A stretch of 64,000 nucleotides of DNA from a virus (IMGVR_UViG_3300037454_000941:138063-202062), one strand, 5' to 3'. Shown: positions 9,463-63,767, counted from the first letter of the stretch. Numbers and translations: made by a program. Notes: generated by a model from the sequence alone, not told the origin.

Positions 9463-9476
9463 GTTGCTATATTTTT
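9463..9476 (+). promoter_or_regulatory. extended -10 promoter motif (GTTGCTATATTTTT)
   Basis: recurrent motif 5 nt upstream of ATG 9481. Confidence 0.5.
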
Positions 9477-9480
9477 AAGC

Positions 9481-10455
9481 ATGAGAAAGATTACCACTAC
9501 ACATACTGGAATTATCGTGTCGGACACCGACATGGAACTGGAATACCTTTACGTGGGCGACTACGGCAAGGAAAACAATATCAAAGCTGATTTCCTGGGT
9601 TACACCAAGAAAATCAAAAAGGTAGAACATCGTCCGGTGGATATTACTGACAAGTTGGTTGTCACGGTATCTACACAGAAGGGATGCTTGGAAAAGTGCA
9701 AGTTTTGTGACTGTCCCAAGTATGGGTTCAAGGGGAACGTGCCGTATTTTCAACTCATGTCCGAGATTATAAATGGAGTGGCATTGTCCAAGATACAGCA
9801 GGGTCAACGTCTTAACGTGCATTTTGCCAGAATGGGTGAACCGACCTGGAATCCTGATGTAATCTCTGTAGCCCGTGACATCGGAACTATAATGAATGGT
9901 GCGCAGAAGTTTATCGAGTATCATCCGGTGGTATCGACCATGCTTCCGAAAAATAACAAGAAGCTTATTCAGTTCCTGCATGCCTGGTGTGAACTAGGAA
10001 ACATGAACTTGTGGAACGGCGGTATCGGCCTCCAATTCTCCATCAACACCCTGGATGAAGCCGACCGTAATGACATGTTCAACAATTGCTCCCTTTCACT
10101 TGCGGAAATTTCAGAAATCGGGAAGCAGCTCCCGATGCCGACGGGACGAAAGTATACACTGAACTTTGCAGTGACCGGTAAGTGCAATTTGGATCCGGAA
10201 ATAATGGGAAGGTATTTTGACAAGGATAAGTTTCTTGTCAAGATCACACCTATCCATGCGACCGAGGAAGCTATCAAGAACGATTTTGCAACTGAATTTG
10301 ACTTCGATGTGTACGAGAAGTTCGAACGTCCTCTGGTCGAGGCTGGGTGGGACGTAATCGTGTTCATCCCGTCATTTGAAGAGGATTCTGACAGGATTAC
10401 ATGTGGTAACTCGCTGATTGCGCTGGGGGCTGCCGATGAAGGTTCTGCTGGTTAA
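9481..10455 (+). CDS. radical SAM enzyme, RlmN/Cfr-like RNA methyltransferase family
   Basis: STQKGCLEKCKFCDC (compare RlmN SSQVGCALECKFCST), RMGEPTWN, C-terminal ITCGNS resembling the RlmN catalytic Cys region. Confidence 0.7.
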   Translation: MRKITTTHTGIIVSDTDMELEYLYVGDYGKENNIKADFLGYTKKIKKVEHRPVDITDKLVVTVSTQKGCLEKCKFCDCPKYGFKGNVPYFQLMSEIINGVALSKIQQGQRLNVHFARMGEPTWNPDVISVARDIGTIMNGAQKFIEYHPVVSTMLPKNNKKLIQFLHAWCELGNMNLWNGGIGLQFSINTLDEADRNDMFNNCSLSLAEISEIGKQLPMPTGRKYTLNFAVTGKCNLDPEIMGRYFDKDKFLVKITPIHATEEAIKNDFATEFDFDVYEKFERPLVEAGWDVIVFIPSFEEDSDRITCGNSLIALGAADEGSAG

Positions 10456-11071
10456 TGGAAGTCCAAGGCAGCATGGGTGTACCGAGCGTGCGCTCATTGA
10501 AGTGCGTGATGCGCTTTCCGGTCTATGTGATGATACCGAACTGATATGGCTGGGTACTCAGGTTTCCTGCTGTACCAACTGCAGGTGTTGCAAGGGTACA
10601 GATGCAACCCGACGGTGCGTCGAGGGCGGCATAGTGAACAAGTTTCTTGATATGCTACCGGGCACTGATGCGGTGGTGTTCGGTTCACCGGTGTATTACG
10701 GTGGCCTAAGTGGCCAGATGGTTAACTTTCTCACTTGGTGCTTCTATTCGTCCCCGAAATCGTTCGTGGGAAAATATGTGGCGGGTATAACTAGCTCACG
10801 CAGGGCCGGTGGGCCGTCGGCGTTGGCATCTTTCAACCAGTTTTTCCTGATGCATAGCATGGTGGTCGTGGGGAGCCAATATTGGAACGAGGTCCATGGG
10901 GATAACCCGGAAGAACTAAAATATGATGTCGAGGGAATGCAGTCGATGCGCAGGCTGGCATACAATATCCACAATGCTGTCCACGGCACTAATGTGGAGT
11001 TCCCGGAAAAGCATATTCACACCAATTTCATTAGCAGGGAATTTTTAAAATTGCAAGAGGAAGGAAAATGA
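10436..11071 (+). CDS. flavodoxin-like NAD(P)H-dependent FMN reductase / iron-sulfur flavoprotein
   Basis: MKVLLVNGSPRQHGCTERAL N-terminus typical of the NADPH-dependent FMN reductase family; overlaps radical SAM gene end. Confidence 0.7.
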   Translation: MKVLLVNGSPRQHGCTERALIEVRDALSGLCDDTELIWLGTQVSCCTNCRCCKGTDATRRCVEGGIVNKFLDMLPGTDAVVFGSPVYYGGLSGQMVNFLTWCFYSSPKSFVGKYVAGITSSRRAGGPSALASFNQFFLMHSMVVVGSQYWNEVHGDNPEELKYDVEGMQSMRRLAYNIHNAVHGTNVEFPEKHIHTNFISREFLKLQEEGK

Positions 11072-11778
11072 AAATCGACATACTCACTGGAAATATCGGT
11101 TCCGGCAAGAGCACCGTGGCCGAAGAGCTCCGCAATATGGGCATCCCGGTCATCAGTGCGGACTGCATGATGAAGGACATCTACCGCAATGACCCGAATA
11201 TTCGCGGCACAGTGACGGCGATTTGGGGTCCCGAGGCCCTGGATCCGGTCATCGGGCTGGGGGAGAAGGTGCGCAATGCGGCCCTCGATGACCCGTCGGT
11301 CTATGAATATCTCACGCGCATCCTCCATTATCCAATGTATGCGAACCTGTGCCAGATTTTACGTGCGCTGGAGATGCTGAGGCCGAAAGTGACCCATGCG
11401 GTAATCGAGTCGGCCACTATCGCCGAATGGATGTTTGCCTGGATAAACCCGGGCATCAAGGTCGGACACACATTCAGGGTGTCCACTTCTAACAAGGATG
11501 CACGCATTGACCGTGTGGTTGAACGGTACAAGAAGCGATTCAGCCTGCATACTGAACGTACGGGTTTCCCCCAATATCCGGAGGAAGTCTACGAAGGGAA
11601 CCGCAAGGTCCTCGCCAAGTATAGGGAGATGGTCATCCGCACGGACGATCTGCAGAACCATGTCAATGCGAAGTGGGAAGGTGATGACCGTATCGGAACG
11701 GTGCACGATTTCCTGAATGACAGCGAGAATGACCCGCTGAGCATCGCATGCAGCATCCGGGATTGTCTTATCGGCTAG
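11068..11778 (+). CDS. P-loop kinase, dephospho-CoA kinase (CoaE)-like; possible nucleotide kinase
   Basis: MKIDILTGNIGSGKSTVAEEL...VISADCMMKD matches CoaE N-terminal Walker A block. Confidence 0.65.
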   Translation: MKIDILTGNIGSGKSTVAEELRNMGIPVISADCMMKDIYRNDPNIRGTVTAIWGPEALDPVIGLGEKVRNAALDDPSVYEYLTRILHYPMYANLCQILRALEMLRPKVTHAVIESATIAEWMFAWINPGIKVGHTFRVSTSNKDARIDRVVERYKKRFSLHTERTGFPQYPEEVYEGNRKVLAKYREMVIRTDDLQNHVNAKWEGDDRIGTVHDFLNDSENDPLSIACSIRDCLIG

Positions 11779-11834
11779 TGTAAACATACGTTAACATTGA
11801 TGGGAATCCGGCACAGGTGCCAAAACATGACACC

Positions 11835-11846
11835 TTTGCTATATTT
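11835..11846 (+). promoter_or_regulatory. extended -10 promoter motif (TTTGCTATATTT)
   Basis: 5 nt upstream of ATG 11852. Confidence 0.55.
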
Positions 11847-11851
11847 AGAAC

Positions 11852-13012
11852 ATGATGGACAAAAAGAAGACAAATGCCAATAAGACTGTGCGACTCAGCC
11901 ACGTTACGGAATTCCGCCCCGAGAAGCCGGTGATGTTTGATCCTCCCAAGTTGATGTTTGTTTGGGACGAAGATGACGTTGTGGAAGGCGACAATGGAGC
12001 GGCCCCGTATTTTGCCAGCGTGATCTACGTTAACCCGCGGATGGTCGGGCATGGCGTTCTCGCAGAGGGTGACGGGGCTTCTGCCAAGAATTTCGGCACA
12101 ACGTGGGACCATTGCGCCCTTATTGAAGAATGTAACAAGGCGCCAAGTTTCGGTTCCACGCTGGGCAAGCGTGATAATTCTGATCCCCGCTACCGGTCAA
12201 TCGACCACATTCCGCTTGCGGTTTATGAATATCTGCAAAGCAGTGACGCTTGCCATGTATCTCATGATGAAATTGTCACCCATCGAGAACTGTCCCAATG
12301 GGTTGGCGAGGGAAAGGGTGAGGTCCTTTACTGCAAGCGTGGCGAGAGCGACGTGTTCCCGCAGTACAGCAATTCGTTCAAGTACAGGGCCGAACGGGAG
12401 AACCTGCCCGTCGTGTGGGCGCGTACCGTATGCGGGGAAGATCTCTACGTCATGGTCAGGAAGTATGGCGACAAGCAACCGTCCCACCCGACCTACAAGT
12501 ACATGGGCCTGGCTGCCGAGGAAACTCCCGATATCATGCCGGTACCCGAGAAAAAGATGGCCACCCTGTCCAACGTGGTCTACTGGATTTGTGACCGCAT
12601 CAGGCCACTCGGGTTCAGTGTCGCCTACGGTGACAGCGAGGTTCTGATTCAAGGGACTGCGGAATGTAACGACAAGAGCCTCAATCTGTGTCCGATGCTA
12701 TGCGAATTCCTGCCCAAGGTAGCTAATGGTACAATGGAGCTCACTGACCGCGAGTACATCCCGCAAGAAGATGATACGGGTGTCCTTGTATACAATCCGT
12801 CCATGGACATGGACACCTACATCAGGACAATGGACCGGATTTTCTTCATCGAGCATTTGATTGTCAGGATGACCGGTCTCGGTAAGGAAAATTTGGGGAA
12901 ATACAGGTTCCCCGTGGAAATCGCGGATTCGCTGTGCAAGGCGTTCCCGTACCTGCGTGAGCACTACCATGAACTGATCCGTACCCCGGACTGGAACGAT
13001 TACACAAAATGA
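11852..13012 (+). CDS. hypothetical protein
   Basis: 386-aa ORF immediately after promoter motif. Confidence 0.65.
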   Translation: MMDKKKTNANKTVRLSHVTEFRPEKPVMFDPPKLMFVWDEDDVVEGDNGAAPYFASVIYVNPRMVGHGVLAEGDGASAKNFGTTWDHCALIEECNKAPSFGSTLGKRDNSDPRYRSIDHIPLAVYEYLQSSDACHVSHDEIVTHRELSQWVGEGKGEVLYCKRGESDVFPQYSNSFKYRAERENLPVVWARTVCGEDLYVMVRKYGDKQPSHPTYKYMGLAAEETPDIMPVPEKKMATLSNVVYWICDRIRPLGFSVAYGDSEVLIQGTAECNDKSLNLCPMLCEFLPKVANGTMELTDREYIPQEDDTGVLVYNPSMDMDTYIRTMDRIFFIEHLIVRMTGLGKENLGKYRFPVEIADSLCKAFPYLREHYHELIRTPDWNDYTK

Positions 13013-16983: not shown

Positions 16984-17010
16984 AGGTTGCCGCAAGGCAA
17001 CCTTTTTGCT
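16984..17010 (+). terminator. Rho-independent terminator overlapping next promoter
   Basis: GGTTGCC-GCAA-GGCAACC + TTTTT. Confidence 0.55.
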
Positions 17011-17016
17011 ACATTT
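17005..17016 (+). promoter_or_regulatory. extended -10 promoter motif (TTTGCTACATTT)
   Basis: 5 nt upstream of ATG 17022. Confidence 0.55.
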
Positions 17017-17021
17017 GGGAC

Positions 17022-18257
17022 ATGAAGATTGAAGAAAAGTACATTTCCGAGACAGTCAAGAAGGGTATCGGCTTGCTCGCCGAAATCCATAAGCGCGGAC
17101 ACGAGGCATACATTGCCGGTGGCGCCGTGCGCGACCTCGTAATTCGCCAGTTGCACATGGTGCCGGGTTCCGAAAATGAAGTTCCCGTGCATGACGTGGA
17201 CATAGCGACCAACATGCCCATCGAGGACCTGAAACTTGCCTTCCGCTGCGACTCCAATAACGGGGAAGCGCATGGCACGATCCTGGTCCATTATGATGGC
17301 CTGGTGTTCGAGGTGACCCAGTTCCGCGTCGATGGCAACTATTCCGACGGTCGCCACCCGGATTCGGTGAATTTCACCAAGTCCTTCAAGGAAGACTGCG
17401 CCCGGCGTGACTTTACCATTAACGCTATGGGTCTGGACAAGGACCTCAATGTCATCGACTATTTCGGCGGTATCGACGACCTGGTATTCCGTCGTCTCCG
17501 TGCAGTGGGCAACCCGTATGACCGCATGACCGAGGATTCCCTCCGTATCATTCGCGGTATGCGATTTGCCGCCCGTTTCGGTTTCGTGATTGACGACCTT
17601 ACCAAGTTGGCCATGCGCAGCCGCCTGCACCACATCAAGAGCGTGGCGATGGAGCGCATCCATGACGAATTGCACAAGTGTGCCGAGTATGGCGTGCTGC
17701 CTTTCGCGAACATGATTGGGTACCTGTCCGAGTATGGCATCGGAACAATTTTCCAGGATGTCGGCTTCTGCTTTGACCGTCAGCGCATGCTCGTGGAATC
17801 CTTGGTACACGGAAACGTGGATGCCGATACAATCATGTCGGTATTCATCTGCATGCTGCCGAAGAAGAGCATGGAATGGCTCCGCTGCACCCGTAAGGAA
17901 ATCCGCATGGCCGAGCGCATCAGGGATGGTCTTATTGGCATCATGTCCGGGAAGTTCGGTCTTGCCGATGAGCAGTTGCTCTATTCCGTTGAACTGGCCG
18001 CTTCCCCGGAATTCAGGCTCATTACCAACCTGTACCGCGAACTGAACCCGTATGGTACCGCCCTGGGTGATGGTGCGGCGACGATATGCGATGTCATTGC
18101 GCGTTGCAGGAAGGGCGAACCCGAATACGGAAAGCAGGTTGCCGCGGAAGGTATCCAGGAAGGGCCTGAATTTGGCAAGCGCCTGCGGGAAGTCATCCTC
18201 GCCGATTACAAGCGCATCAAGGATGGCTGGGACAAATCATGCAATAGGATGTGGTAA
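17022..18257 (+). CDS. cca: tRNA nucleotidyltransferase (CCA-adding enzyme)
   Basis: GGAVRDLV...DVDIATN head domain, RRDFTINA, DRMTEDSLRIIRGMRFAARFGF motifs of class II CCA enzymes/poly(A) polymerases. Confidence 0.85.
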   Translation: MKIEEKYISETVKKGIGLLAEIHKRGHEAYIAGGAVRDLVIRQLHMVPGSENEVPVHDVDIATNMPIEDLKLAFRCDSNNGEAHGTILVHYDGLVFEVTQFRVDGNYSDGRHPDSVNFTKSFKEDCARRDFTINAMGLDKDLNVIDYFGGIDDLVFRRLRAVGNPYDRMTEDSLRIIRGMRFAARFGFVIDDLTKLAMRSRLHHIKSVAMERIHDELHKCAEYGVLPFANMIGYLSEYGIGTIFQDVGFCFDRQRMLVESLVHGNVDADTIMSVFICMLPKKSMEWLRCTRKEIRMAERIRDGLIGIMSGKFGLADEQLLYSVELAASPEFRLITNLYRELNPYGTALGDGAATICDVIARCRKGEPEYGKQVAAEGIQEGPEFGKRLREVILADYKRIKDGWDKSCNRMW

Positions 18258-20255: not shown

Positions 20256-20290
20256 GATTTAACATAATGCGGTTTCCAAATGACCGCATT

Positions 20291-20303
20291 TTTGCTATAT
20301 TTT
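20291..20303 (+). promoter_or_regulatory. extended -10 promoter motif (TTTGCTATATTTT)
   Basis: 4 nt upstream of ATG 20308. Confidence 0.55.
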
Positions 20304-20307
20304 GAAC

Positions 20308-21654
20308 ATGAACGATAATAGCGAAATTTTCAAGAACAACATACCCGAACTCCCGCCATTCTCGAAGGAACTCGAACACTACTGGGAAGAACAGGTGACC
20401 AACGGTGCCATGTCCGAAACCGAGAAGAGGGTCCATGAAAAGGGTATCCTCCTCATCAAGGTGGCCGCGGGTTCGCAGTCGTTCGGTCTTGCCACCGAGA
20501 CTTCCGATGTGGACATTCACGGTGTGTATATCCTGAAATGGAGCGAGCGCATCAAGCACGATGCCCCGAGCCAGATTGCCGACGAGAAGAACAACGAGGT
20601 CTACTGGGACATCACGAAGTTCCTTACCGAGTTGAACTCCGCCAATCCCCAGGCCCTCGAAATGCTCTATGCTCCGAAGCATTGCGTATTTGTGGGCCAG
20701 TCTATCCTCGAAATCCTCCGAAAGAAATTTGACTTCCTCACCATGCGTTGTGACAAGTCGTTCTGCGAGTATGCCCGTGGCCAGGTTGACCGTGCGAAGG
20801 GCCTGAACAAGAAGGTATTCGATCCGCAGCCGGAGAGGCGCCCGCGTTTCGTCGATTTCATCTATGTCCTCGATGGCAACCTCGCCACTCCCCTCATGGA
20901 ATGGATTAAGGCCAATTATCGCGGCAAGCCGGAAGAAGTCCAGCGTTGGTTCTCCATCGCCCGGATCGACCATGGCGATTGCATCTACGCGGTGTATTTC
21001 CAGAAGAAGTCGCTGTCCATCAGTATCCGCGAATTCGTCCGGAAATGCCTCTCCAAGGTATTCAAGGGTGTCCGTCAGCTTCCCGAGCACAAGTGGCGTT
21101 GGGGCTATGGTGTCGTCCGTGACATCGAGCGCAGCGATGATATTCAACTCAACTCCATCCCGAAGGGTTTGAGCCCTGTTGCCCATATCTTTGTGAACCG
21201 CAACGACTTTGCGCGTAAGTGCAAGAAGTGGCACGAGTATTGGGACTGGGTCAAGGCCCGTAACGAGGAACGCTACAACACCACCTTGAAGCATGGCCAG
21301 GGCTACGATGCGAAGAACATCATGCACTGTGTCCGTCTGCTCCTTACCGCCTACGGTATCGCCACCGAGCATACCGTCCCGGTCTACCGTGCCGACAGGG
21401 ACCTCTGCAACAAGGTCTGCATGGATTACAACAAGCATCCGTACAGCAATGACCGTGACTTCCTCCTGGCAATCAAGAACGGTGACTGGACGTTCGATGA
21501 CATCATCGACTACATCGGCGAGCTTGGCAAGGAAGTGAACAAGGCGTTTGCCGCATCCGGATTGAAGGAAAGGGCATATACACCGGAAGAAATCGACAAG
21601 TTCTCCGTGGAACTTGCCGAGAAGTTGCTTCCGATGGATTGGGCTAATTTCTAA
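20308..21654 (+). CDS. pol-beta superfamily nucleotidyltransferase (predicted nucleotidyltransferase, PF10127-like)
   Basis: GSQSFGLATETSDVDIHGVYI = GS...SDxD nucleotidyltransferase motif. Confidence 0.65.
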   Translation: MNDNSEIFKNNIPELPPFSKELEHYWEEQVTNGAMSETEKRVHEKGILLIKVAAGSQSFGLATETSDVDIHGVYILKWSERIKHDAPSQIADEKNNEVYWDITKFLTELNSANPQALEMLYAPKHCVFVGQSILEILRKKFDFLTMRCDKSFCEYARGQVDRAKGLNKKVFDPQPERRPRFVDFIYVLDGNLATPLMEWIKANYRGKPEEVQRWFSIARIDHGDCIYAVYFQKKSLSISIREFVRKCLSKVFKGVRQLPEHKWRWGYGVVRDIERSDDIQLNSIPKGLSPVAHIFVNRNDFARKCKKWHEYWDWVKARNEERYNTTLKHGQGYDAKNIMHCVRLLLTAYGIATEHTVPVYRADRDLCNKVCMDYNKHPYSNDRDFLLAIKNGDWTFDDIIDYIGELGKEVNKAFAASGLKERAYTPEEIDKFSVELAEKLLPMDWANF

Positions 21655-23339: not shown

Positions 23340-23514
23340 TGTGGATCCGGAAGGTGTGCACATGCTGAAGAAGCGTGTAATGCGTTCGGCTCCGTTCACC
23401 TGCCCACGCGGCGCGAACCGGTATCTCGCAATGGACCACGCGACACACCTGACCGTGGAAGATATGCGTTTCGTTTTGTTCCCGGTGCGAGGCTAGTTGC
23501 CATATGGTTCCCGG

Positions 23515-23526
23515 TTTGCTACATTT
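23515..23526 (+). promoter_or_regulatory. extended -10 promoter motif (TTTGCTACATTT)
   Basis: 5 nt upstream of ATG 23532. Confidence 0.5.
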
Positions 23527-23531
23527 GCGGC

Positions 23532-24257
23532 ATGAATAGTATGCATACGATGAGTGACAAAGCCGACAGGTTGATTGATATCCTTGGAGCCGAGGATCCG
23601 GTACAGTCCATTCTCGACAATGGGGACCTGTTCCCGTTTGTCGAAAAGGAAATGATGGGGGTGGCTCATCCGAAGGTGCACTGCGAAGGGGACGTGTGGG
23701 AACACACTGCCCTCGTGATCCGCAGTTTGCGCCCAGGCCACGACTGGGTGGATGTCCTCATCGCCCTTTTCCACGATGCCGGCAAGAAGCGTGCGCTGGA
23801 AAGGAACCAGGGCAAGAACATGGCCGGGCATGAACTTTTTAGCCTGGACATATTCAACGAATGGATCCTGAAGGAAGTCGGGATGATGCTCCCGCCGATT
23901 GCACCGCTCAGGTGGGTAATCGAGAACCACATGAACGTGATTAACCTTGGCCAGGTGAAGTCGGAATACAAGGTCATGAAGATCGTGACCGACCAGAGTT
24001 TCCCCAGGCTCTGCACGCTCGGGTATGCGGATACCGCGGCCACTCTCGGGCCGGACATGAAGCCCATCCATGATTTCAAGAAGGAAGTGCTGGATGTGCC
24101 GAAGGTATCCGCTGGCTCGGCATGTACCAGCCGGCACCCATCGCGGTGGAAGAGGATTTCTACATCAATGGTGTCCCGGCGGTCTTCCTCAGGGAAGCGG
24201 TGGAGTTCGGGCTCAAACTGCAGATTAACGGAAGGATTACCGACCGTCAGTCGATAA
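23532..24257 (+). CDS. HD-domain phosphohydrolase (possible frameshift near 24100)
   Basis: AHPKVHCEGDVWEHT...ALFHDAGK HD motif; C-terminal 50 aa look like out-of-frame junk while overlapping ORF 24122..24352 continues plausibly. Confidence 0.6.
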   Translation: MNSMHTMSDKADRLIDILGAEDPVQSILDNGDLFPFVEKEMMGVAHPKVHCEGDVWEHTALVIRSLRPGHDWVDVLIALFHDAGKKRALERNQGKNMAGHELFSLDIFNEWILKEVGMMLPPIAPLRWVIENHMNVINLGQVKSEYKVMKIVTDQSFPRLCTLGYADTAATLGPDMKPIHDFKKEVLDVPKVSAGSACTSRHPSRWKRISTSMVSRRSSSGKRWSSGSNCRLTEGLPTVSR

Positions 24258-27341: not shown

Positions 27342-27366
27342 CAAGTAGTTGCCGTTATCGTCGCCC

Positions 27367-27378
27367 TTTGCTATATTT
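27367..27378 (+). promoter_or_regulatory. extended -10 promoter motif (TTTGCTATATTT)
   Basis: 5 nt upstream of ATG 27384. Confidence 0.55.
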
Positions 27379-27383
27379 ATGGC

Positions 27384-27923
27384 ATGACGGAAATTTTCAT
27401 CGACATCGAAAATACGCTTATTGACGACCTGTGCAGCTGTAACCTGCTGCAGGAAAATACCAAGCGTATCGCCGACTTCATTGAGGCGAGGATCGAAATC
27501 CATCCGGCGGATCTGACCGCTAAGGTGAACCTGTTCACTTGGGGATGGAAGACCAAGGATGAAATCCGTGACTACATAGTCAACTGGCTTTTCGATGCAC
27601 TGGGCGTGCCCCAGGAAAACCGTGGGTTCGTATGGACCAAGGACGATTCCATCGAATGCGCTTACAGGAATGGATGGGTAAACACCAAGGACGAAGTTGA
27701 AATCGAGGACCTTCATGTTCCGGGAGCAATGAAGCGCTACGGGCTGGACAAGCAGACGTGCTTCATCAAGCAGGCGATGGAATATGCGGAATTTCCGGGT
27801 GGTGGGGGCAACGATGCCTACATTCTGATTGACGATACCAATCCCCCGTGGAATGAAACCCGGACATATTCTACCAATGACAGTGACCTTTCAATAACAT
27901 TCTATCACCCGGAGAAGTTTTGA
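27384..27923 (+). CDS. hypothetical protein
   Basis: 179-aa ORF. Confidence 0.6.
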   Translation: MTEIFIDIENTLIDDLCSCNLLQENTKRIADFIEARIEIHPADLTAKVNLFTWGWKTKDEIRDYIVNWLFDALGVPQENRGFVWTKDDSIECAYRNGWVNTKDEVEIEDLHVPGAMKRYGLDKQTCFIKQAMEYAEFPGGGGNDAYILIDDTNPPWNETRTYSTNDSDLSITFYHPEKF

Positions 27924-30276: not shown

Positions 30277-30350
30277 CACTAGTCTGGCCCATGTAGTGGC
30301 CATAACCCACACCAAGGTATCACTTGGGTGGACAATCCAGGAGGAAAACA

Positions 30351-44915: not shown

Positions 44916-44945
44916 TGGCCTCCTTTGTGCATGAAATATAGTAAA

Positions 44946-44957
44946 GTTGCTATATTT
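44946..44957 (+). promoter_or_regulatory. extended -10 promoter motif (GTTGCTATATTT)
   Basis: upstream of AAAGGAG-led ATG 44975. Confidence 0.5.
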
Positions 44958-44974
44958 CAGCCAAAGGAGTTATC

Positions 44975-45169: not shown

Positions 45170-45409
45170 TTTCTTACGTGGAGCTTACAGAAAACTTATT
45201 TAATTCTTATTTCTTCAAAAAGCGGTCAAAAACCCTTTACAGCCGGAAATAAATTTGCTAAACTTATAGTCACAAGGAATACTTATGAACCAGAGAATTA
45301 CGACAATCATTACGAAGAAGCCCACCGGCTGGATGAAACCAGGCCGCGGTTTCGATGGTATTGATGGAATGATTCAATGTGTTCACCGGTAGTCCAAGTA
45401 CCCAGTTTT

Positions 45410-46556: not shown

Positions 46557-46629
46557 GCCGGGTTAGCTCACTTGGCAGAGCGGCGCATTCGTAATGCGCA
46601 GGTCGCAGGTTCGAGCCCTGCACCCGGCT
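46557..46629 (+). tRNA. tRNA-Thr (CGT)
   Basis: acceptor GCCGGGT/ACCCGGC, AC stem GCGCA/TGCGC loop TTCGTAA. Confidence 0.65.
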
Positions 46630-46637
46630 CTCGCTTT

Positions 46638-46649
46638 TTTGCTATATTT
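46638..46649 (+). promoter_or_regulatory. extended -10 promoter motif (TTTGCTATATTT)
   Basis: 5 nt upstream of ATG 46655. Confidence 0.55.
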
Positions 46650-46654
46650 CAGGC

Positions 46655-47494
46655 ATGAAGCAATCCGAATTTACCAGACTACTTGACTGTTTTGTCGTGC
46701 ACGAAGGTTCGTCCGACAAGAAACCCCTCGAAGACTACTGCCATACCGGCCTCCTCGTCGACGCAAAGGGCGACCCGGATGCCGAAATCAGGCATGTCGT
46801 CACCGGCGTCAGCCTCCGCAAGGAACTCATCCTCCGCGCCATCGAACAGAAGGCCGACGCAATCATCGTCCATCACCCGAACGGCTTCTGGAAATCCGAG
46901 AAGGACAAGCGCCTCATCGGTACCCACGGCGAATACATGCGCCTCCTCATCCAGAACGGCATCAACCTCTACGGCTACCACCTCCACCTCGACCGCCATT
47001 ACCTGGTGGGCAACAACTTCACCATTGGCCGTCTCATCCAGTGCGAAGATCCGCAGCACCGCATGACGTTCACCCCGTTCCTCGACGGCATCGGCGTGAT
47101 GTTCGACGGTTGCCCGGCGAAGGAAACAATCGACAACGTGTTCCCGAACGGCTGGAACGTGGCGGGGGACCCTGAAGCTGTGAAACGCTTGCTCGATCCG
47201 TCCGTCGACAAGAAGTTCGCCGTATGCTCCGGCAGCTGCGGCCCGTCCGGCCTCGAAGAGGCCGAAATGCTCGGCGCCGACGTGCTCGTCACCGGGGAAA
47301 TCCGCGAATCCATGCCGATCTACGCCGAAGAGCACGGCATGGCGATTATCTACGCCGGCCACCACCGTTCCGAAATCTTCTGTGTCCAGTTCCTCGCCGA
47401 CTACATCATGGGCGCTGGCCAGTTCGAGGGCATGGGTGACAAGCGCTTCGAAGGCGTCACCGCGGAATTCATCGACATCGACAATCCTGTATAA
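46655..47494 (+). CDS. Nif3-family dinuclear metal center protein (YqfO/YbgI-like; GTP cyclohydrolase I type 2 homolog)
   Basis: RAIEQKADAIIVHHP ... GHHRSE motifs of the Nif3/DUF34 family. Confidence 0.7.
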   Translation: MKQSEFTRLLDCFVVHEGSSDKKPLEDYCHTGLLVDAKGDPDAEIRHVVTGVSLRKELILRAIEQKADAIIVHHPNGFWKSEKDKRLIGTHGEYMRLLIQNGINLYGYHLHLDRHYLVGNNFTIGRLIQCEDPQHRMTFTPFLDGIGVMFDGCPAKETIDNVFPNGWNVAGDPEAVKRLLDPSVDKKFAVCSGSCGPSGLEEAEMLGADVLVTGEIRESMPIYAEEHGMAIIYAGHHRSEIFCVQFLADYIMGAGQFEGMGDKRFEGVTAEFIDIDNPV

Positions 47495-50463: not shown

Positions 50464-50480
50464 TGTAAAACCTCTGCAAT

Positions 50481-50514
50481 AAAATATAGCAAACTCGCGC
50501 ATTTTGCTATATTT
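50481..50514. promoter_or_regulatory. back-to-back divergent promoter motifs (minus-strand TTTGCTATATTTT; plus-strand TTTGCTATATTT at 50503-50514)
   Basis: two copies of the motif in opposite orientation 10 nt apart. Confidence 0.5.
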
Positions 50515-50580
50515 CATGGCATGGATATTTACTTAATTACGGCGAGTGCGCACTGATGCTCGAACCGGCATGAGGCATAT

Positions 50581-51010: not shown

Positions 51011-51040
51011 TTGACATTCGTAGTTTAAATTGCTACATTT
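51011..51040 (+). promoter_or_regulatory. sigma70-like promoter (TTGACA-18nt-TACATT) overlapping the phage motif AATTGCTACATTT
   Basis: heads the ORF-free 51050-53810 region. Confidence 0.5.
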
Positions 51041-51049
51041 AGGTCAGCC

Positions 51050-51554: not shown

Positions 51555-52025
51555 GATGGGACGATTGAGTTTCCTGGATACTCGTTCGACCGGTTCCTTG
51601 CGGCGATAGGAAACTAGTCGCATGTTTGGTGAGATGTTTAGTTTCGACTGGGCATCGGACCATCAGCTACCCAACGGGGAAACCCGTTGAAATTGAAGGA
51701 AACTTTGATTTCATAGTTGATTAGACTCAGTAATGCATAGCAATATGCTGAACTACGTTAGGAAGGTCATGGCACCCTGGGATGTACGGTCAAGTCCCCC
51801 GCCCTGCCGTCCGTGGTTAAACAGTCCTGATGGGTAGGGACAGTGCTGCGGGCATGACAAGCCTTCCTAACATTGTCGATGACCACCCACAGGGGCAACC
51901 CCTGCATTACCCGATTAAGTTCGGGTTCCCGTAAAGGGCCAACGCCGGGACGCCGCTCACACATCTTCAGTGGGTGAGTTCCCGCCCCGGCAAAGGTTTT
52001 CTATATTGAAACAGGTGGACTATGT
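51555..52025 (+). ncRNA. candidate structured ncRNA segment B with tmRNA-like 5' motif
   Basis: contains GGTGAGATGTTTAGTTTCGACTGGGCATCGGACC, similar to the tmRNA 5' end GGGGGTGCTTGGTTTCGACTGGACATCTGACC; GNRA loops (GGGAAACCC); no canonical tmRNA 3' end found. Confidence 0.35.
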
Positions 52026-57347: not shown

Positions 57348-57380
57348 AAAGGCATCCCGTTGCCACGGGATGCCTTTTTT
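57348..57380 (+). terminator. Rho-independent terminator fused to next promoter
   Basis: AAAGGCATCCCGT-TGCC-ACGGGATGCCTTT + TTTT. Confidence 0.65.
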
Positions 57381-57390
57381 GCTATATATT
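57378..57390 (+). promoter_or_regulatory. extended -10 promoter motif (TTTGCTATATATT)
   Basis: 4 nt upstream of ATG 57395. Confidence 0.5.
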
Positions 57391-57394
57391 GTAC

Positions 57395-58078
57395 ATGAAA
57401 TACGACATGTTACAAAGGTCTGTGGCCAAACGTATCCTCGATGCTTTCTATGGGCGTTCCTTTTTCATAAATAAAAAGTATGAGGGGTACCGTAAGGTCA
57501 ACAAGTATTGGAACTCTGACCGCGAACGTTTCGCTGGCCGGTTCTTCAAGCAACTTGAGGGGAAATACTTTGCCTTGATGGACATCGAGATCGTCGCCTT
57601 TACGGATGGCAACTATGCAACATGGTTGGATACTCCGCAATCCGTATTCGGTGATGATTCGCAGGTGTACTATTTTCCTAACGGAGGGACCCCCGTCAAA
57701 AAAGCCGTCAAGAAGTTCCTCAGGGTAGACTATGTACATGCGGAGAACGAAGCAAGCGGTGACGGGTATGTCGCAGTTGGGTGCCATGATCATCTAGGGA
57801 ATAATTTCCGCCTGCGCATTAACAAATGGACCCTGCCTAAGTTCCAGTTCAAGGAAATAACGCAGGATGAATTCGACGCCGTTGCCGCGGTGTTCCAGGA
57901 TGATCGCGATACCAGGCCGTTCAAGGTTACCCGTTACCTTACCGTTGAGGAAATGAAGGAACGGGGCCTGTTCGAAGGCAGCTCGGGCGCGATTAAGGAA
58001 ACCGTCATTGTTGACGCGAAGGACGCGGATGACGCATACACCAAGCTCAGCAACACCATAGAGGTCGAAACATGCTGA
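57395..58078 (+). CDS. hypothetical protein
   Basis: ATG in-frame with track ORF 57338. Confidence 0.6.
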   Translation: MKYDMLQRSVAKRILDAFYGRSFFINKKYEGYRKVNKYWNSDRERFAGRFFKQLEGKYFALMDIEIVAFTDGNYATWLDTPQSVFGDDSQVYYFPNGGTPVKKAVKKFLRVDYVHAENEASGDGYVAVGCHDHLGNNFRLRINKWTLPKFQFKEITQDEFDAVAAVFQDDRDTRPFKVTRYLTVEEMKERGLFEGSSGAIKETVIVDAKDADDAYTKLSNTIEVETC

Positions 58079-58572: not shown

Positions 58573-60024
58573 ATGCTCGACCAGGCGGCGATACAGGACA
58601 AGTTGTCCCGGGCTGCATTGGACATGTCCAGGAAGACACCTGAGCTTCTCGGGCTGTATGTCACTTTGGAGAAGAAGATGACATCGGATACCAGTATCAC
58701 GATGCGTGTCGGGTGTAGGGACGGGAAGCCGTTTCTGGTATATGGGGACTGGTTTGTCAACATGTTGGAGCCTACCTTGCTTGGCATGGTGCTTCACATG
58801 AACTGTCTGAGGATAGCGCTCCATCACTGTGACAAGAGGGTGCGCCAGCCGGAGGCCCTGTATCGCCTGGCAAGCGATCTGGTGGTACGTGAATATTCCC
58901 AGTCGATTGCCGACGTGGACGCGGGGGACAATTCGGCCATATTGTCGCAGGTGATGCCTAGCATATGGGCGTATTCGGGTGTTTTCGATAAGTTTGACTT
59001 TGATCCGGCCAGGGACCTTACCTTGGAGAAAGTGTTCGACATGTTGTGCCAGGCCGACGTGGAATCCGAGAATGAAACCGACAGGGAATCGGAGAATGGT
59101 CCTGCAAATGGTGACGGGGAGGGGACCGGAGATCCGGGGAGCGACACCGGCGAGGACGGGAATGATGATGCCGATAGACCCGGCGGTGATTCCGACCCAT
59201 GGGACGATGACGCCGATGGGGGTGAAGGCGGAGAAGGGGACAATCCATTCGGGGAGTCATTGGACGAGGGGAACGGCCACGGGGAAACCGCCGAGCCGAG
59301 CCCAAGTTACATGGCGATGCAGCAGATGTTCAGCCCGGAAACTGCAGCGGCTGACCTTGCCGAGTGGGGTAGGGATGACGAGGCGAGCGCCGAAATACGG
59401 AACGCGATCCCCATGCAGTCCACCGGGGGGCACGCGGGAACCCCCGGAAGGGTACAGCTCGCCATCCGGACCGCGAACAGGGTGAGGGTCGATGCCGCTC
59501 GGGTGTTCAGGATGTTCATATCGAGTAATTTCAGTCCGTCGTTCACCGCCTCATGGTCTATGCCGAACCTGATGCTTCGCCGGTTTGGACCGATTGCCCC
59601 TGGACATGTCAGGAAGAGGGACCGCCCGCATATTCTCTTTGCCATAGACGTGTCCATGTCGATGGTTGCCGAGGGTCTGATTGAACAGTGCATATCTGCG
59701 GTCGGCGGGTTCATAGGGAAGTCAAAAATGGACCTGTGTTCATGGGACGGGGAGTGCAGCGAGATAGCTAGGGACGTGAAGGACATCGATACGAGCCGGC
59801 TGTATGGAGGCGGCTGTACGGATCCGCAGTGCGTCTTGAAGCGGGTTGAACGCGAGCACCTATCATATGACGGCATGGTGTTCCTTACCGACTGTGAGTT
59901 CGACTGGCCTGCCCCGGTACATCCCGAGAGGATTTGTATAATTCGTACCCGGGGAAGCAGTGGCACGATACCGGCATGGTGTAAGTGGAAGATGGAAATG
60001 GATGACCTTTTGCGGGCCGTCTAG
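58573..60024 (+). CDS. DUF2201-type protein: N-terminal putative metallopeptidase-like domain, acidic linker, C-terminal VWA-like domain
   Basis: GGAGG RBS; long D/E/G-rich linker; C-terminal ILFAIDVSMSM (VWA MIDAS-like); partner of downstream MoxR ATPase. Confidence 0.6.
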   Translation: MLDQAAIQDKLSRAALDMSRKTPELLGLYVTLEKKMTSDTSITMRVGCRDGKPFLVYGDWFVNMLEPTLLGMVLHMNCLRIALHHCDKRVRQPEALYRLASDLVVREYSQSIADVDAGDNSAILSQVMPSIWAYSGVFDKFDFDPARDLTLEKVFDMLCQADVESENETDRESENGPANGDGEGTGDPGSDTGEDGNDDADRPGGDSDPWDDDADGGEGGEGDNPFGESLDEGNGHGETAEPSPSYMAMQQMFSPETAAADLAEWGRDDEASAEIRNAIPMQSTGGHAGTPGRVQLAIRTANRVRVDAARVFRMFISSNFSPSFTASWSMPNLMLRRFGPIAPGHVRKRDRPHILFAIDVSMSMVAEGLIEQCISAVGGFIGKSKMDLCSWDGECSEIARDVKDIDTSRLYGGGCTDPQCVLKRVEREHLSYDGMVFLTDCEFDWPAPVHPERICIIRTRGSSGTIPAWCKWKMEMDDLLRAV

Positions 60025-60041
60025 GACAAAAGTGGAAAACA

Positions 60042-60053
60042 TTTGCTATATTT
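60042..60053 (+). promoter_or_regulatory. extended -10 promoter motif (TTTGCTATATTT)
   Basis: 5 nt upstream of ATG 60059. Confidence 0.55.
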
Positions 60054-60058
60054 GAATT

Positions 60059-61315
60059 ATGATTCGTTGTACGATAGCCGAATTTAAGAAATTCCTGAAG
60101 ATTGTCCCGACCGACAAGCCCATATTGCTGATAGGCGACACTGGCATCGGGAAGACCACGATATGCCGGCGCGCCGCGGAAGAGGCCGGCGTCCACTACG
60201 CGTATGTCCCCTGCATGTCCATATCGGATACGGTGCTCCTGTCCGGCATACCGGATGTTTCCGGGACGCATACCGTGTACAAGCCGATGGAATGGTATGA
60301 ACCCGGTGTCGTCACCTTGCTCCTCATTGATGAAATCAACCGCAGCGAGGCCATCATCAATTCGCTGATGGAGCTCGCCACCGATCAGCACATAGGCAGT
60401 GTCAAGCTGGCACCGGGTTCCCGGGTCATCGCCGCGATGAACCCGTCAACTGAGAACTACCAGATGGTGAAGGAACTTGAACTGTCCCACATGTCCAGGT
60501 TTTTTGTCATCGAGCTTGCCCCTACGGTCGACGAATTCCTCGACGTGGCCGAGGAGGAAAAGATCCATCCGGTAATCTTGAAGTACATCAGGATGCATCG
60601 TGAGGCCGCGCTCGATCCGAATCCGGATGGCGCAAAGCGCAGGGAGAGGCGCTTCTACACCAACCTGGATGCGACCCGCCGTGGCTGGTACACCATGTCG
60701 GCGACGATTTACAACGGCGAAAAGGCTAACGAATTCGACCCGAACTCGGAGGAAGGCCGTAGGATGCTTGCCTTGACTGTCGCCGGCTATGTCGGCCCGG
60801 AATTTTCCGACTCCTTCTCCGAGATGTACTATGCCACCAAATATTCGCTGAGCGTGGAGGATATGAGCAGGCGTTCCGACCCTGACATCACCCCGTACAT
60901 GCTGATGGAAGCCGGCGATGACAGATGGAAAAGCGAGCTGCCCAACAAGGTAGCCGATTTGTGCAGGAATCGACCGTTGGAGGCCGCCCGGTTGGTCACG
61001 TCCGTGGCGCAGTACATCGCAAGTAAGTTGACCGTCCTGGTGAATACGACAACGAACCGTATATCTAAGATAGGGATACGTTACGCGATAAATTTTTATA
61101 AGTTCGTCCATTCGTGTACCCCGGAGATGGCCGCTCAGATGTATTTTTCCCACGTCAAGCCGTTGATGGCGAACCGAAAGGATGACTCCGAGGTGCTATG
61201 GGTAGACGTGATGGTGGCCGGGTGTCCGGAATTGCGGAAATTGTTCGAGGAGATCAGGAAGCCCCCAAAGAAATGTTCACAAAAAAGCGTGGGCAGGAAG
61301 ATGCCGTCCCTTTAG
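60059..61315 (+). CDS. MoxR-like AAA+ ATPase (AAA_5 family)
   Basis: Walker A GDTGIGKTT, Walker B LLLIDEINRS, sensor AAMNP. Confidence 0.75.
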   Translation: MIRCTIAEFKKFLKIVPTDKPILLIGDTGIGKTTICRRAAEEAGVHYAYVPCMSISDTVLLSGIPDVSGTHTVYKPMEWYEPGVVTLLLIDEINRSEAIINSLMELATDQHIGSVKLAPGSRVIAAMNPSTENYQMVKELELSHMSRFFVIELAPTVDEFLDVAEEEKIHPVILKYIRMHREAALDPNPDGAKRRERRFYTNLDATRRGWYTMSATIYNGEKANEFDPNSEEGRRMLALTVAGYVGPEFSDSFSEMYYATKYSLSVEDMSRRSDPDITPYMLMEAGDDRWKSELPNKVADLCRNRPLEAARLVTSVAQYIASKLTVLVNTTTNRISKIGIRYAINFYKFVHSCTPEMAAQMYFSHVKPLMANRKDDSEVLWVDVMVAGCPELRKLFEEIRKPPKKCSQKSVGRKMPSL

Positions 61316-61635
61316 GGCGGCATAGGAATGCCCACGAAAGCACTTGCATTTTGAAAAGATATAAACTATATTGTACATGACGCTGAAAGTCTTGCTGAAA
61401 TAAAAGGCACTCATCTAAAAGTCCAAAAGAGGCTCGTGGCTTGGTGAGGAAACAGTTTGATTGGATTCGGTAGCCACATACATAACGAGTTCAAGATGCA
61501 TTATGAGTATAGCGGATTGCTGAAATGCAGTCTAACCATCCCGACTCGTATGCCTATGCATACTTGACGGGCAGGCCGCAAGTCAACCGGCCAATCGTAT
61601 GTAAGTCTCCTACGTGGAAACGCGCTGGAGCTTTA

Positions 61636-61993: not shown

Positions 61994-62011
61994 TTGCCGG
62001 ACTCCTGAGTG

Positions 62012-62023
62012 TTTGCTATATTA
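62012..62023 (+). promoter_or_regulatory. extended -10 promoter motif (TTTGCTATATTA)
   Basis: upstream of AGGAG-led ATG 62049. Confidence 0.45.
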
Positions 62024-62048
62024 ACGGCAAACAACCAGGAGAAACTCT

Positions 62049-62672: not shown

Positions 62673-62680
62673 TGACGTGA

Positions 62681-62725
62681 TGCATTTGTGAACTACCCAC
62701 GCCCTAAAGGGCGTGAGCTTGCGAC
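62681..62725 (-). repeat. inverted copy of IS605-type LE-like hairpin (complement reads GGCGGTCGCAAGCTCACGCCCTTTAGGGCGTGGGTAGTTC)
   Basis: matches 54966-54998 in reverse orientation. Confidence 0.55.
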
Positions 62726-62789
62726 CGCCTCTTTGTCAAATTTGTACAAAAAACACCGGGAACTCCCGGTGTTTTCTGTGTGAAGTCAT

Positions 62790-63686
62790 CTAGCGGGTGA
62801 GACGATCTACCGAATTGAAGCAGATTGCTTTGATGGAATCGTCGGAGAGGTGAGAGGAGTCCCCGAACACGCTCTCGAAGCAGGCTCGGAGGTCAGACGT
62901 GGTAACTGATTCCTCGGCCACCTTGCCGCTCATCATGAAGTCCTTCACCGCACCGGCTGCTTTCTTGAGGCCGGCCTTGAGACCGCTCAGTTTGCCCTTC
63001 TTCGGTTCAGCGGACTTGGTTTCCGGCTTGGTGTCCGGTTTCTTCTCGTCTTTCTTGTCCTCTTTTTTGTCATCCTTCGGGGCATTCTTTGCGCTGTCGG
63101 CATCTTTCTTGCCCTGCTTGTCGCCCTTGAACTTCTCGCCGAAATTCTTGCGATCTTCATCGTACTGCGCCCTCTTCATGGCCGGGGTAATGAACCCGCC
63201 CGGTCCGCGGCGGCGCTTGACTTTCCCCTGGTTCTGGTCGTCCCACATGAGACCGCCATCCTCGCTGGCCAGGTATTCTTCGATAGTGGGGCGGAGAACG
63301 TTCTCGACCCAGGCATCCAGTTCACCCGGGGCAATCTCCGCATAGCGTTCAAGGGTGTGCTCAGCCGACTTTACGCTGCGCTTGAGGGTGCCAACCTGGC
63401 GCCTCCACTGTTTCTCCATGGAATGGATATCCGCGTTGTGGGCGGACAGTTCCTCCGGGGTCATCGTCTTGGCTTTAGGACCGGCGTGGGTCCCGCCGAA
63501 GGTGTTCTGGCCGAGCGATGCCGATGTCCCGTTGGGAATCCTTACATCCATAGTTGCGCCAGTGCCTTCCAGCTTGGCGAACATGCCCCTGGCCGAGTTG
63601 ATCAGGTCGCGTTCCTTGTCGGTAGTGGCCACGCTTTCCAGCTGGGCCGTAAATTCTAGGAGTCGCTTGTAGTTTTCGAGTTGCAT
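62790..63686 (-). CDS. hypothetical protein with Lys/Asp-rich low-complexity C-terminal half
   Basis: 298-aa minus-strand ORF. Confidence 0.55.
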   Translation of the reverse strand: MQLENYKRLLEFTAQLESVATTDKERDLINSARGMFAKLEGTGATMDVRIPNGTSASLGQNTFGGTHAGPKAKTMTPEELSAHNADIHSMEKQWRRQVGTLKRSVKSAEHTLERYAEIAPGELDAWVENVLRPTIEEYLASEDGGLMWDDQNQGKVKRRRGPGGFITPAMKRAQYDEDRKNFGEKFKGDKQGKKDADSAKNAPKDDKKEDKKDEKKPDTKPETKSAEPKKGKLSGLKAGLKKAAGAVKDFMMSGKVAEESVTTSDLRACFESVFGDSSHLSDDSIKAICFNSVDRLTR

Positions 63687-63755
63687 GGATTACTCCGTAA
63701 AAGTCATGTTCCGCTATAGCTTATATGGGTGGCGTAATTGCCATTCGGGGCATTT

Positions 63756-63767
63756 TTTGCTATATTC
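63756..63767 (+). promoter_or_regulatory. extended -10 promoter motif (TTTGCTATATTC)
   Basis: 5 nt upstream of ATG 63773. Confidence 0.5.

Follow-up and report, generated by a model that had tools for sequence, protein, structure and literature searches.

The stretch of viral DNA studied here (IMGVR_UViG_3300037454_000941:138063-202062, 64,000 nucleotides of one strand, 5' to 3'; hereafter the window, meaning the whole stretch that was analysed) raises a simple question: what does a short motif, TTTGCTAYATT, do directly in front of so many of its genes? An earlier note had read the motif as an extended -10 promoter element without a -35, lying in most cases about 5 nt before an ATG, so that the messages would be leaderless or nearly so. 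Here, we report that the motif, as far as its sequence tells, is the core of a complete sigma-70-class promoter with an extended -10 and a -35. We consider it likely that the sites form one promoter family, used by a bacterial-type RNA polymerase holoenzyme, and that the first cistrons behind 10 to 11 of them would be leaderless. The window belongs to the genome of a huge phage, from a metagenome of gut or rumen type, since homologues of its RlaP protein sit on contigs of 218-436 kb with similar gene content.

Exact copies of TTTGCTAYAT number 16 in the window, 15 of them on the plus strand, against 0.14 expected from shuffled sequences, none of which reached 16. The same sites were recovered by an independent repeat finder and by a generic, motif-blind scan for the sigma-70 consensus. 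The scan flagged 17 of the promoter sites, each with its TG, and hardly any hit with a TG in front of the hexamer fell elsewhere. Every position listed in the earlier note carries the motif, two of them after a shift of one nucleotide (41565 to 41564, and 51028 to 51029), and the minus-strand copy near 50481-50493 is exact, with the first T of its hexamer at 50488, facing a minus-strand open reading frame (ORF). Missing from that list were the sites at 9101, 31609, 42674 and 52002 and the weaker variants at 45236-45264 and 61344-61372. Allowing one mismatch, together with a check of the context, gave a set of 24 sites, which were aligned on the hexamer. The nearly invariant element returns about once per 2-3 kb. 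In this alignment T-15, C-13, T-12 and A-11 occur in all 24 sites and T-16 and G-14 in 21; within the hexamer, position -10 is a pyrimidine, A-9 and T-8 are invariant and T-7 occurs in 22, followed by T-6 in 18. C stands at -1 in 14 sites and A at +1 in 17. The element thus has the anatomy of a promoter, as proposed before, with the TG at -15/-14 of an extended -10.

The claimed lack of a -35, on the other hand, does not hold for the window. Positions -36 to -30 read gTTGCCa (G in 16, T in 19, T in 17, G in 14, C in 17, C in 17 and A in 12 of the 24 sites), exactly 17 bp from the hexamer; the majority of the sites have TTGCC(A/G) or TTGACA at this spacing, and of 21 exact sites 12 carry TTG(A/C)(A/C) at a distance of 16-18 bp upstream of the hexamer, compared with 2.3% of random positions. 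All 24 aligned sites are intergenic and point at a gene or RNA gene downstream on the same strand. This includes the two minus-strand sites (hexamer T at 50488, exact, and at 44940, one mismatch), both of which face minus-strand ORFs and belong to divergent back-to-back pairs (44940/44951 and 50488/50508). Outside the positions relevant to sigma-70, the copies share no similarity. One further exact copy, at 22731, is not in the set: it lies within an ORF and has no -35, and its status is left uncertain. A literature search with the motif string returned only unrelated eukaryotic primer matches.

How, then, do the start codons stand to these promoters? At 10 of the 24 sites, all on the plus strand, an ATG follows exactly 6 nt after the hexamer, i.e., 5 nt after the 12-mer, which places the hexamer at -12 to -7 relative to the A. 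The spacing described earlier for most sites is thus exact at these 10 and accounts for only about half of the sites overall. The starts concerned are 11852 (promoter 11817..11852, GTGCCA-17-TTTGC-TATATT; 386 aa, the first start codon of its ORF), 17022 (16987..17022, TTGCCG-17-TTTGC-TACATT; CCA-adding enzyme), 20308 (20273..20308, TTTCCA-17-TTTGC-TATATT; RlaP-type nucleotidyltransferase), 23532 (23497..23532, TTGCCA-17-TTTGC-TACATT; 241 aa), 27384 (27349..27384, TTGCCG-17-TTTGC-TATATT; 179 aa), 42686 (42650..42686, a degenerate TTGCCG-18-AATTC-TATATA; 156 aa), 46655 (46620..46655, TTTGC-TATATT right after tRNA-Thr and without a -35; NIF3 family), 57395 (57360..57395, TTGCCA-17-TTTGC-TATATA; 227 aa), 60059 (60023..60059, AGGACA-18-TTTGC-TATATT; AAA ATPase, the first start codon of its ORF, where the database gene call agrees) and 63773 (63738..63773, TTGCCA-17-TTTGC-TATATT; the ORF continues past the window end). 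At one more site (9445..9481, plus strand, TTGCCA-17-GTTGC-TATATT) the ATG, at 9481, comes 7 nt after the hexamer, and the radical-SAM-like gene there would be nearly leaderless.

The ORFs that begin at ATGs spaced in this way are 156-448 aa long, and in several of them no start codon comes earlier. At none of the 11 is there a Shine-Dalgarno (SD)-like 4-mer within 18 nt upstream, because the promoter fills that space, and none has an in-frame, SD-led start within about 40 codons downstream. The start codon is ATG in all 11, with A at +4 in 10 of them. The RlaP homologues begin within a few residues of Met1 of the window RlaP. When the window was taken together with six non-redundant related loci, an ATG was found at offset 6 behind 15 of 42 exact TGCTAYATT sites and at offset 5 or 7 behind 4 more, compared with a chance expectation of about 0.7 for any one offset. 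We infer that in 10 to 11 genes +1 falls on the A of the ATG, and that some 45% of the transcription units would be leaderless. For these 10 to 11 genes the leaderless layout proposed earlier is supported by the geometry and by the lack of SD sites and of alternative starts; the other sites are leadered, serve RNA genes or, in one case, have no clear target.

At those other sites the same promoter stands 18-80 nt upstream of SD-led starts, namely 9158, 30351, 31647, 39784, 41633, 44975 and 62049 on the plus strand, 50463 on the minus strand and probably 50581. On the plus strand, 9078..9113 (TTGACA-17-TATATT, the hexamer being preceded by ATGC; the scan found 11 of 12 consensus matches and the TG) leads to the start at 9158 with the SD AGGA; 30248..30282 (TTGCCA-16-ATTGC-TATATT) to the ATG at 30351 with AGGAGG; 31586..31621 (TTGCCA-17-AATGC-TACATT) to that at 31647 with AGGA, which opens an SPFH/Band 7 protein; 39715..39750 (TTGCCG-17-TTTGC-TATATT) and 41546..41581 (TTGCCA-17-TTTGC-TACATT) to 39784 and 41633, both with GGAGG; and 61994..62029 (TTGCCG-17-TTTGC-TATATT) to 62049 with AGGAG. 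The first divergent pair consists of 44928..44963 (+; GTTGC-TATATT), leading to the ATG at 44975 with AGGAG, and 44928..44964 (-; TTTAC-TATATT, hexamer 44940-44935), which faces AAGGAGG and an ATG at 44912 that opens a 24-codon ORF only, or else would give an antisense RNA. In the second pair, 50476..50511 (-; TTTGC-TATATT, hexamer 50488-50483) leads to the ATG at 50463 with the SD GAGG (271 aa), and its divergent partner 50485..50521 (+; TTTGC-TATATT) has an ATG 7 nt on that opens 11 codons, its likely target being the start at 50581 with the SD GAGG.

The same promoter type also serves RNA genes. The site at 52002 (51979..52014, +; TTTTC-TATATT) lies 22 nt upstream of the transfer-messenger RNA (tmRNA) gene at 52030-52390, and that at 51034 (51011..51046, +; TTGACA-17-ATTGC-TACATT) is followed by 430 nt without an ORF and then by tRNA-Pro (51468) and a HEARO RNA (51662-51890). 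The target of 32471..32506 (+; TTTGC-TACATT, without a -35 and without a start codon nearby) is uncertain; tRNA-Gly(ccc) lies 300 nt downstream, at 32794. Of the two weaker variants, both on the plus strand, 45236..45264 (TTTACA-17-TAAACT, with TTTGC before the hexamer) lies ahead of the second tRNA array and of a small ORF, and 61344..61372 (TTGCAT-17-TATATT, without the TG) heads a 380-nt ORF-less stretch.

The two layouts sort by position in the operon. Beyond 9.1 kb the plus strand has 61 genes. Such a promoter stands before 17 of them, as first cistrons, 10 leaderless and 7 leadered with an SD; all 10 genes with the exact leaderless spacing are among these first cistrons. The other 44 are internal cistrons: an SD-like site is present at 33, and the remaining ones mostly overlap the stop codon before them. 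Overall, SD-like 4-mers precede 47% of first start codons and 13% of internal control codons. Because the leaderless genes are all first cistrons and the SD genes are mostly internal, the two modes of translation initiation follow operon position. The earlier suggestion of two temporal or translational classes is thus right in that two initiation modes coexist; for its temporal part the window gives no sign, as one promoter type serves all units and operon position explains the modes.

Could the motif act in the RNA instead, as a U/A-rich signal on polycistronic transcripts that lets translation start without an SD, 5 nt ahead of the AUG? It does occupy the position of the ribosome-binding site in the 10 to 11 SD-less genes, and some huge phages without canonical SD sites have been linked to phage S1-like proteins (PMC7162821). 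An RNA signal, however, has no use for the -35 that co-occurs at a fixed 17 bp, and about half of the copies lie 18-80 nt from the start codon with an SD in between. Several copies stand right after terminator hairpins whose T-run overlaps the motif, where upstream transcripts would end. The copy before the tmRNA gene and the divergent back-to-back pairs fit a DNA signal, not an RNA signal, and we regard this explanation as highly improbable.

The promoter family is not confined to the window; the motif recurs in every related contig examined. Ordered by the identity of their RlaP to that of the window, the contigs carry 2 exact TTGCTAYATT sites (L007, 78%), 1 (L009, 72%), 3 (L013, 56%), 2 (L014, 48%), 7 in 21 kb (L015, 45%) and 6 in 21 kb (L010, 44%), and L017, a 446-kb contig found via another protein, has 5 sites of the shorter core TGCTAYATT. 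The Bacteroides phage Versailles and a Dysgonomonas contig, used as controls, have no exact copy of the motif. At least one ATG with leaderless spacing occurs in each of L007, L010, L013, L014, L015 and L017. Independent database gene calls start at hexamer T +12 in L007 (4922), L013 (12475), L010 (14806 and 19184) and L015 (16807), and one L015 call (7590) starts at +13. The -35 varies by lineage: it is of the TTGAC or TTGCA type in L007, L013 and L014, and it is found at 0 of the 13 sites of L010 and L015 together, so the wording "extended -10 only" is accurate for these two.

The strongest single test of a leaderless start is a pair of orthologous 68-aa genes in L007 and L014. Their products are 59% identical from Met1, and both genes start at hexamer T +12. 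Conservation of the DNA in front of them is limited to TTGACG, TTTGCTATATT and CATG, with spacer and discriminator diverged. Please note that the database calls do not always agree with such starts. The call for the 68-aa gene of L014 (11370-11576) is 21 codons too short, and the counterpart of the 57395 gene in L001 (1042-1782, corresponding to window 57338-58078) is called from an upstream GTG, a start that would put the terminator hairpin and the promoter inside the coding region. Orthologues may also differ in their state, leaderless or leadered: the window's RlaP gene is leaderless, and that of L010 is leadered with an SD, behind the same promoter type.

Terminators stand close to a part of these promoters. 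At about 8 of the 24 sites a hairpin with a T-run abuts or overlaps the -35 or the spacer; that a hairpin precedes every promoter was considered and rejected on this count. The sigma-70 scan lists terminator-like hairpins beside promoters at 9428-9449, 16984-17003, 20266-20290, 39680-39701 and 63726-63747, and folding found further ones at the sites 42674 and 57383. The -35 TTGCC lies within the stem at the sites 9468, 17010 and 42674 and the -35 lies in the loop at 20296 and 57383; the hairpin of site 42674 is TTGCCGC-CCGA-GCGGCAA, -35 included, and that of site 57383 is GGCATCCCG/CGGGATGCC, with the -35 in its loop and followed by T6. At about one-third of the sites, the terminator of the preceding unit would thus overlap the -35 and the spacer of the next, its T-run running into TTTGC, and this overlap would give compact terminator-promoter junctions.

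Such junctions resemble the mobile promoter/stem-loop cassettes of T4-type phages, in which small genes are separated by a stem-loop together with an early promoter. One might then take the copies for remnants of a mobile or duplicated cassette, or for operators of a DNA-binding protein, without promoter function, and a highly conserved helix-turn-helix (HTH) protein, described below, is indeed encoded in the window. However, copies of a cassette should resemble each other beyond the sigma-70-relevant positions, and these do not; in the L007/L014 pair it is the spacer and the discriminator that have diverged, not the -35 and -10. The orientation is always that of the downstream gene and the ATG spacing is fixed, hairpins are found at only about one-third of the window sites, and there is no evidence of mobility of the junctions, in contrast to the T4-type cassettes. 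We give this explanation next to no probability.

What polymerase reads these promoters? The family is most likely bound by a bacterial-type RNA polymerase holoenzyme with a group-1-like sigma, and the simplest candidate would be the primary sigma of the host, starting 7 nt after the hexamer. At 10 to 11 sites the first cistron would then be a leaderless mRNA, ribosomes binding its 5'-terminal AUG, and the downstream cistrons of such a unit would be initiated via SD sites or start/stop coupling; elsewhere the same promoter would give an 18-80-nt leader with an SD, or an RNA gene such as that of the tmRNA. Initiation at these sites, the sigma factor used and the translation of leaderless mRNAs are all points that we infer.

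Several observations weigh against this reading. It is the geometry that puts the start of transcription at the A of the ATG, and because the distance from hexamer to start may be 6-9 nt with sigma-70 holoenzymes, some mRNAs could carry one or two extra nucleotides or begin inside the ATG. In Firmicutes and Bacteroidetes, where the gut hosts are likely to belong, leaderless genes are reported to be rare (PMC3160421), and efficient translation of leaderless mRNAs is therefore not assured. The folding energy upstream, taken over all sites together, is no different from that of controls (p = 0.14). The near-invariance of 12 nt, including C-13, is stricter than is usual for housekeeping promoters, and the core persists in phages with proteins only 44% identical, in which the -35 differs or is absent. 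This strictness, together with the retention of the core while the -35 changes, leaves room for a phage-specific factor.

Such a factor might be a phage-encoded member of the sigma-70 family, or a phage protein that retargets the host RNA polymerase, reading a clade-specific TTTGCTAYATT; the leaderless mRNAs could then belong to an expression channel that favours the phage. The core of 11-12 nt is identical while the shared RlaP is only 44-48% identical, the -35 varies between TTGCC, TTGAC and TTGCA or is missing altogether (none at the 13 sites of L010 and L015), and C-13 is invariant, unlike in generic extended -10 promoters. Some huge phages have been reported with sigma-70 and AsiA-like proteins (PMC7162821), and Thermus phages retarget the host RNA polymerase to extended -10 promoters via gp39 (PMC3950348). 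A protein of the window also comes into question, the 163-aa protein with three HTH modules and weak Sigma70_r4_2 matches encoded at 47494-47985, which is 80-99% identical across the clade. Against this, neither the window nor the annotated genes of some 150 kb of related loci yielded a sigma, an anti-sigma or an RNA polymerase subunit, and Pfam, PHROGs and NCBIfam gave no protein recognisable as binding RNA polymerase. For the HTH protein, a comparison with the PDB gave no significant structural match and nothing links it to the motif; the geometry (-35, 17-bp spacer, TG and -10) is fully canonical for a primary sigma. We consider a phage factor possible, on the unlikely side, and the host primary sigma remains our preferred reading.

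The HTH protein deserves a few words by itself. The operon that begins at 46655 runs on into its gene at 47494. Its 163 residues are predicted to form three tandem three-helix HTH modules (AlphaFold, pLDDT 79), with weak matches to Sigma70_r4_2, HTH_28 and GcrA and no significant fold match in the PDB. Homologues occur in this clade only, at the 80-99% identity given above, compared with 44-48% for RlaP. It may be regarded as a candidate clade-specific DNA-binding regulator, which we offer as a lead only, and we claim no role for it.

If the sigma is that of the host, which host? One version of the host reading would take the sites for primary-sigma promoters of the Bacteroidota type, the host being a member of the Bacteroidota. 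The Bacteroides promoter consensus is -33 TTTG / -7 TAnnTTTG; TAYATTT fits the first seven positions of TAnnTTTG, and there is a TTG near -35. The closest phage match of the radical-SAM gene is a Bacteroides phage (47% identity), the closest RlaP in phage databases is that of a 635-kb uncultured phage (29%), with Prevotella Lak phages (about 30%) coming next, and the only named cellular RlaP matches are in Bacteroidota. The last G of TAnnTTTG, however, is at background in the 24 sites (T 7, A 6, G 6, C 5), the invariant upstream TTTGC is foreign to the Bacteroidota consensus, and neither the Dysgonomonas contig nor the Bacteroides phage has an exact copy of the motif. The frequent use of SD sites (before 47% of first starts as compared with 13% of controls, and 4 of 33 in the Bacteroides phage) also argues against a Bacteroidota host. 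We consider this version very unlikely. The host affinities of the window genes are mixed, tnpB pointing to a Clostridia metagenome-assembled genome (67%) and the radical-SAM and RlaP genes to Bacteroides/Prevotella phages and Bacteroidota.

That tnpB copy had been listed as carrying a variant of the motif, and it drops out of the family. At 3777..3794 (+), TTTGC-TATATA is followed after 4 nt by the ATG of tnpB; this look-alike lies on the left-end hairpin of an insertion sequence (IS), and the 67%-identical tnpB of the Clostridia genome has TTTACTTGTATATG at the same place. We rejected it as a phage promoter, because it is carried by the insertion sequence. The gene itself runs from 3792 to 5183, a second tnpB lies at 55110-56408, and an IS607-type serine recombinase with a MerR-HTH is encoded at 959-1600 on the minus strand. 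TnpB is also found in L010, L011, L013, L014, L015 and L018, and not in L007, L009 and L017, among the related loci fetched; such elements therefore appear to be frequent residents of the phage clade. A 34-nt repeat, AAGCTCACCGCCTTTAGGCGGTGGGTAGTT, has three copies (54974-55007, 56392-56425 and 61637-61670), one by the start and one by the end of the tnpB at 55110-56408, and the third inside the ORF-less 380-nt region 61316-61696, which has its own TTGCAT-17-TATATT promoter. The repeats probably represent the ends of ISs or scaffolds of TnpB guide RNAs, and one of them may be a solo copy.

A second element was noticed besides the promoter: a 26-nt sequence, CGGGGCTTCCGnnnCGnAGAATTAAA, stands twice, at 15973-15998 and 16277-16302, where chance predicts zero copies. 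Both copies lie about 35-40 nt upstream of starts (16030 and 16339) that have neither an SD nor a TTTGCTAYATT promoter, and the element may be a second regulatory signal.

The window as a whole has a G+C content of about 51%, with the first 5.4 kb lower, at about 45%, and its plus strand carries nearly all of the genes. A megablast search of the INPHARED phages with 22.6 kb of the window gave no match, and a search of IMG/VR with the AAA ATPase protein alone gave no relative. The RNA genes comprise 53 tRNA genes (two large arrays plus singles; 5383-9051 and 45552-46630), one tmRNA and one HEARO RNA. The tmRNA encodes an unusual tag, ANDAFACRMAA, the end of which differs from the usual ALAA. 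The HEARO (IscB omega-RNA) match at 51662-51890 is strong (121.6 bits) and has no adjacent IscB/HNH ORF; its neighbours are tRNA-Pro upstream and the promoter and gene of the tmRNA downstream. The ORF-less 430-nt stretch that begins at promoter 51034 (51040-51467) has no Rfam match, and a permissive Rfam search of 51000-57100 found only the HEARO RNA, the tmRNA and tRNAs.

Among its proteins the window encodes the CCA-adding enzyme, the RlaP-type nucleotidyltransferase, a dUTPase and the two TnpB proteins, and further auxiliary genes: an NMNAT-NUDIX fusion (24633-25862) and an NAPRTase (35343-36716), both of nicotinamide adenine dinucleotide salvage, a PARG-like protein with a microbial-type PARG domain (18599-19486) and a PTH2-like protein (a weak match to peptidyl-tRNA hydrolase; 40236-40832). 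Related loci additionally carry RtcB, RNA ligases, Thg1 and NADAR. This suggests an investment in RNA repair and ADP-ribose metabolism.

The promoter family is real and clade-wide, and it is of a known kind, already seen in phiYS40 and P23-45; its leaderless layout is one known from Thermus phages and not from giant phages of the gut or rumen. In these Thermus phages, most middle and late transcripts of phiYS40 have no leader (PMC3594737), and P23-45's middle and late promoters are of the extended -10 type and are spared by gp39, which displaces sigma region 4 (PMC3950348, PMC7403470). The likeness lies in the TG-extended -10 promoters, which are used there by a bacterial sigma-A-type holoenzyme, and in the leaderless genes; L010 and L015, with an extended -10 and no -35, match this class closely. 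The window phage, in contrast, has a clear -35 at 17 bp, and only about 45% of its units would be leaderless; its promoter also serves RNA genes and leaders with an SD, and nothing suggests that these are segregated in time. The phages here are gut or rumen phages of 200-450 kb, unrelated to the 80-150-kb Thermus phages, and the Thermus host is rich in leaderless genes, whereas the host here appears to use SD sites. Scans with Pfam, PHROGs and NCBIfam identified no gp39-like factor, of the gp39/gp76 kind that silences -10/-35 promoters and leaves extended -10 ones active.

Cellular genes provide a second parallel. In the TA-led leaderless genes, TANNNT has its first T some 12 nt ahead of the start codon (PMC3160421), and in the window the hexamer T lies at -12 for 10 genes and at -13 for one. 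The geometry is identical to that of the TA-led genes of Actinobacteria and Deinococcus-Thermus, which likewise have no SD (PMC3160421, PMC12340547); the cellular TAnnnT is loose, however, and has no TTTGC, while the 12-nt core of the phage is nearly invariant. In Deinococcus, adding a correctly spaced -35 to a -10-adjacent ORF raises expression (PMC12340547), an effect that parallels the full promoter of the window phage. Compared with extended -10 promoters in general (TGn, or 'TRTG' at -16; PMC7403470), T-15 and G-14 stand one base before the hexamer, like those of the T-17 R-16 T-15 G-14 motif, and the spacing of -35 and -10 is canonical; the differences are a T rather than a purine at -16, the invariant C-13, TAYATT instead of TATAAT, and a far tighter conservation.

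Among the large phages, phiKZ and AR9 also have their own recurrent short promoter motifs, which are read by a phage multisubunit RNA polymerase and have no -35/-10 architecture, in contrast to the sigma-70-like promoters here; no RNA-polymerase-like genes of the phiKZ/AR9 type were found in the window or the related loci, which are partial genomes. No leaderless transcripts are found in phiKZ (PMC8244752), and the 5' untranslated regions of AR9 are 26-491 nt long (PMC5312081), so a clade of huge phages with some 45% of its units leaderless would follow a different strategy. Promoters and leaderless genes were not analysed in the survey of huge phages (PMC7162821). The classic phage mRNA that starts at its AUG is that of cI from lambda PRM (referenced in PMC12340547); in lambda it is one leaderless gene, and in the window phage a recurrent design.

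For the annotation of the clade, this means that SD-based gene callers misplace starts, and that the rule 'hexamer T +12 = start' corrects the calls and marks transcription units. The motif is also of practical use as a compact signature for members of the clade in metagenomes, and it is a candidate strong-promoter part once the host is known. For its evolution, the same 12-nt core, accompanied by a -35 in one sub-lineage and standing without one in another, allows -35-dependent and -35-independent versions of one promoter to be compared in nature. The finding further raises the question whether these phages bias the translation of the host toward mRNAs with a 5'-terminal AUG, as phiYS40 is thought to do via IF2/IF3. 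In its strongest form, which we put forward as speculation and consider unlikely, this clade of 200-450-kb gut and rumen phages would run a semi-orthogonal expression channel: TTTGCTAYATTt read by a phage factor (possibly the three-HTH protein or an unseen sigma), systematically leaderless first cistrons, and their preferential translation after the host has been remodelled by the 53 tRNAs, the tmRNA, the CCA-adding enzyme, the PTH2-like protein and possible changes of initiation factors. If true, such a channel would carry the phiYS40 paradigm over to hosts where leaderless translation is, as a rule, rare.

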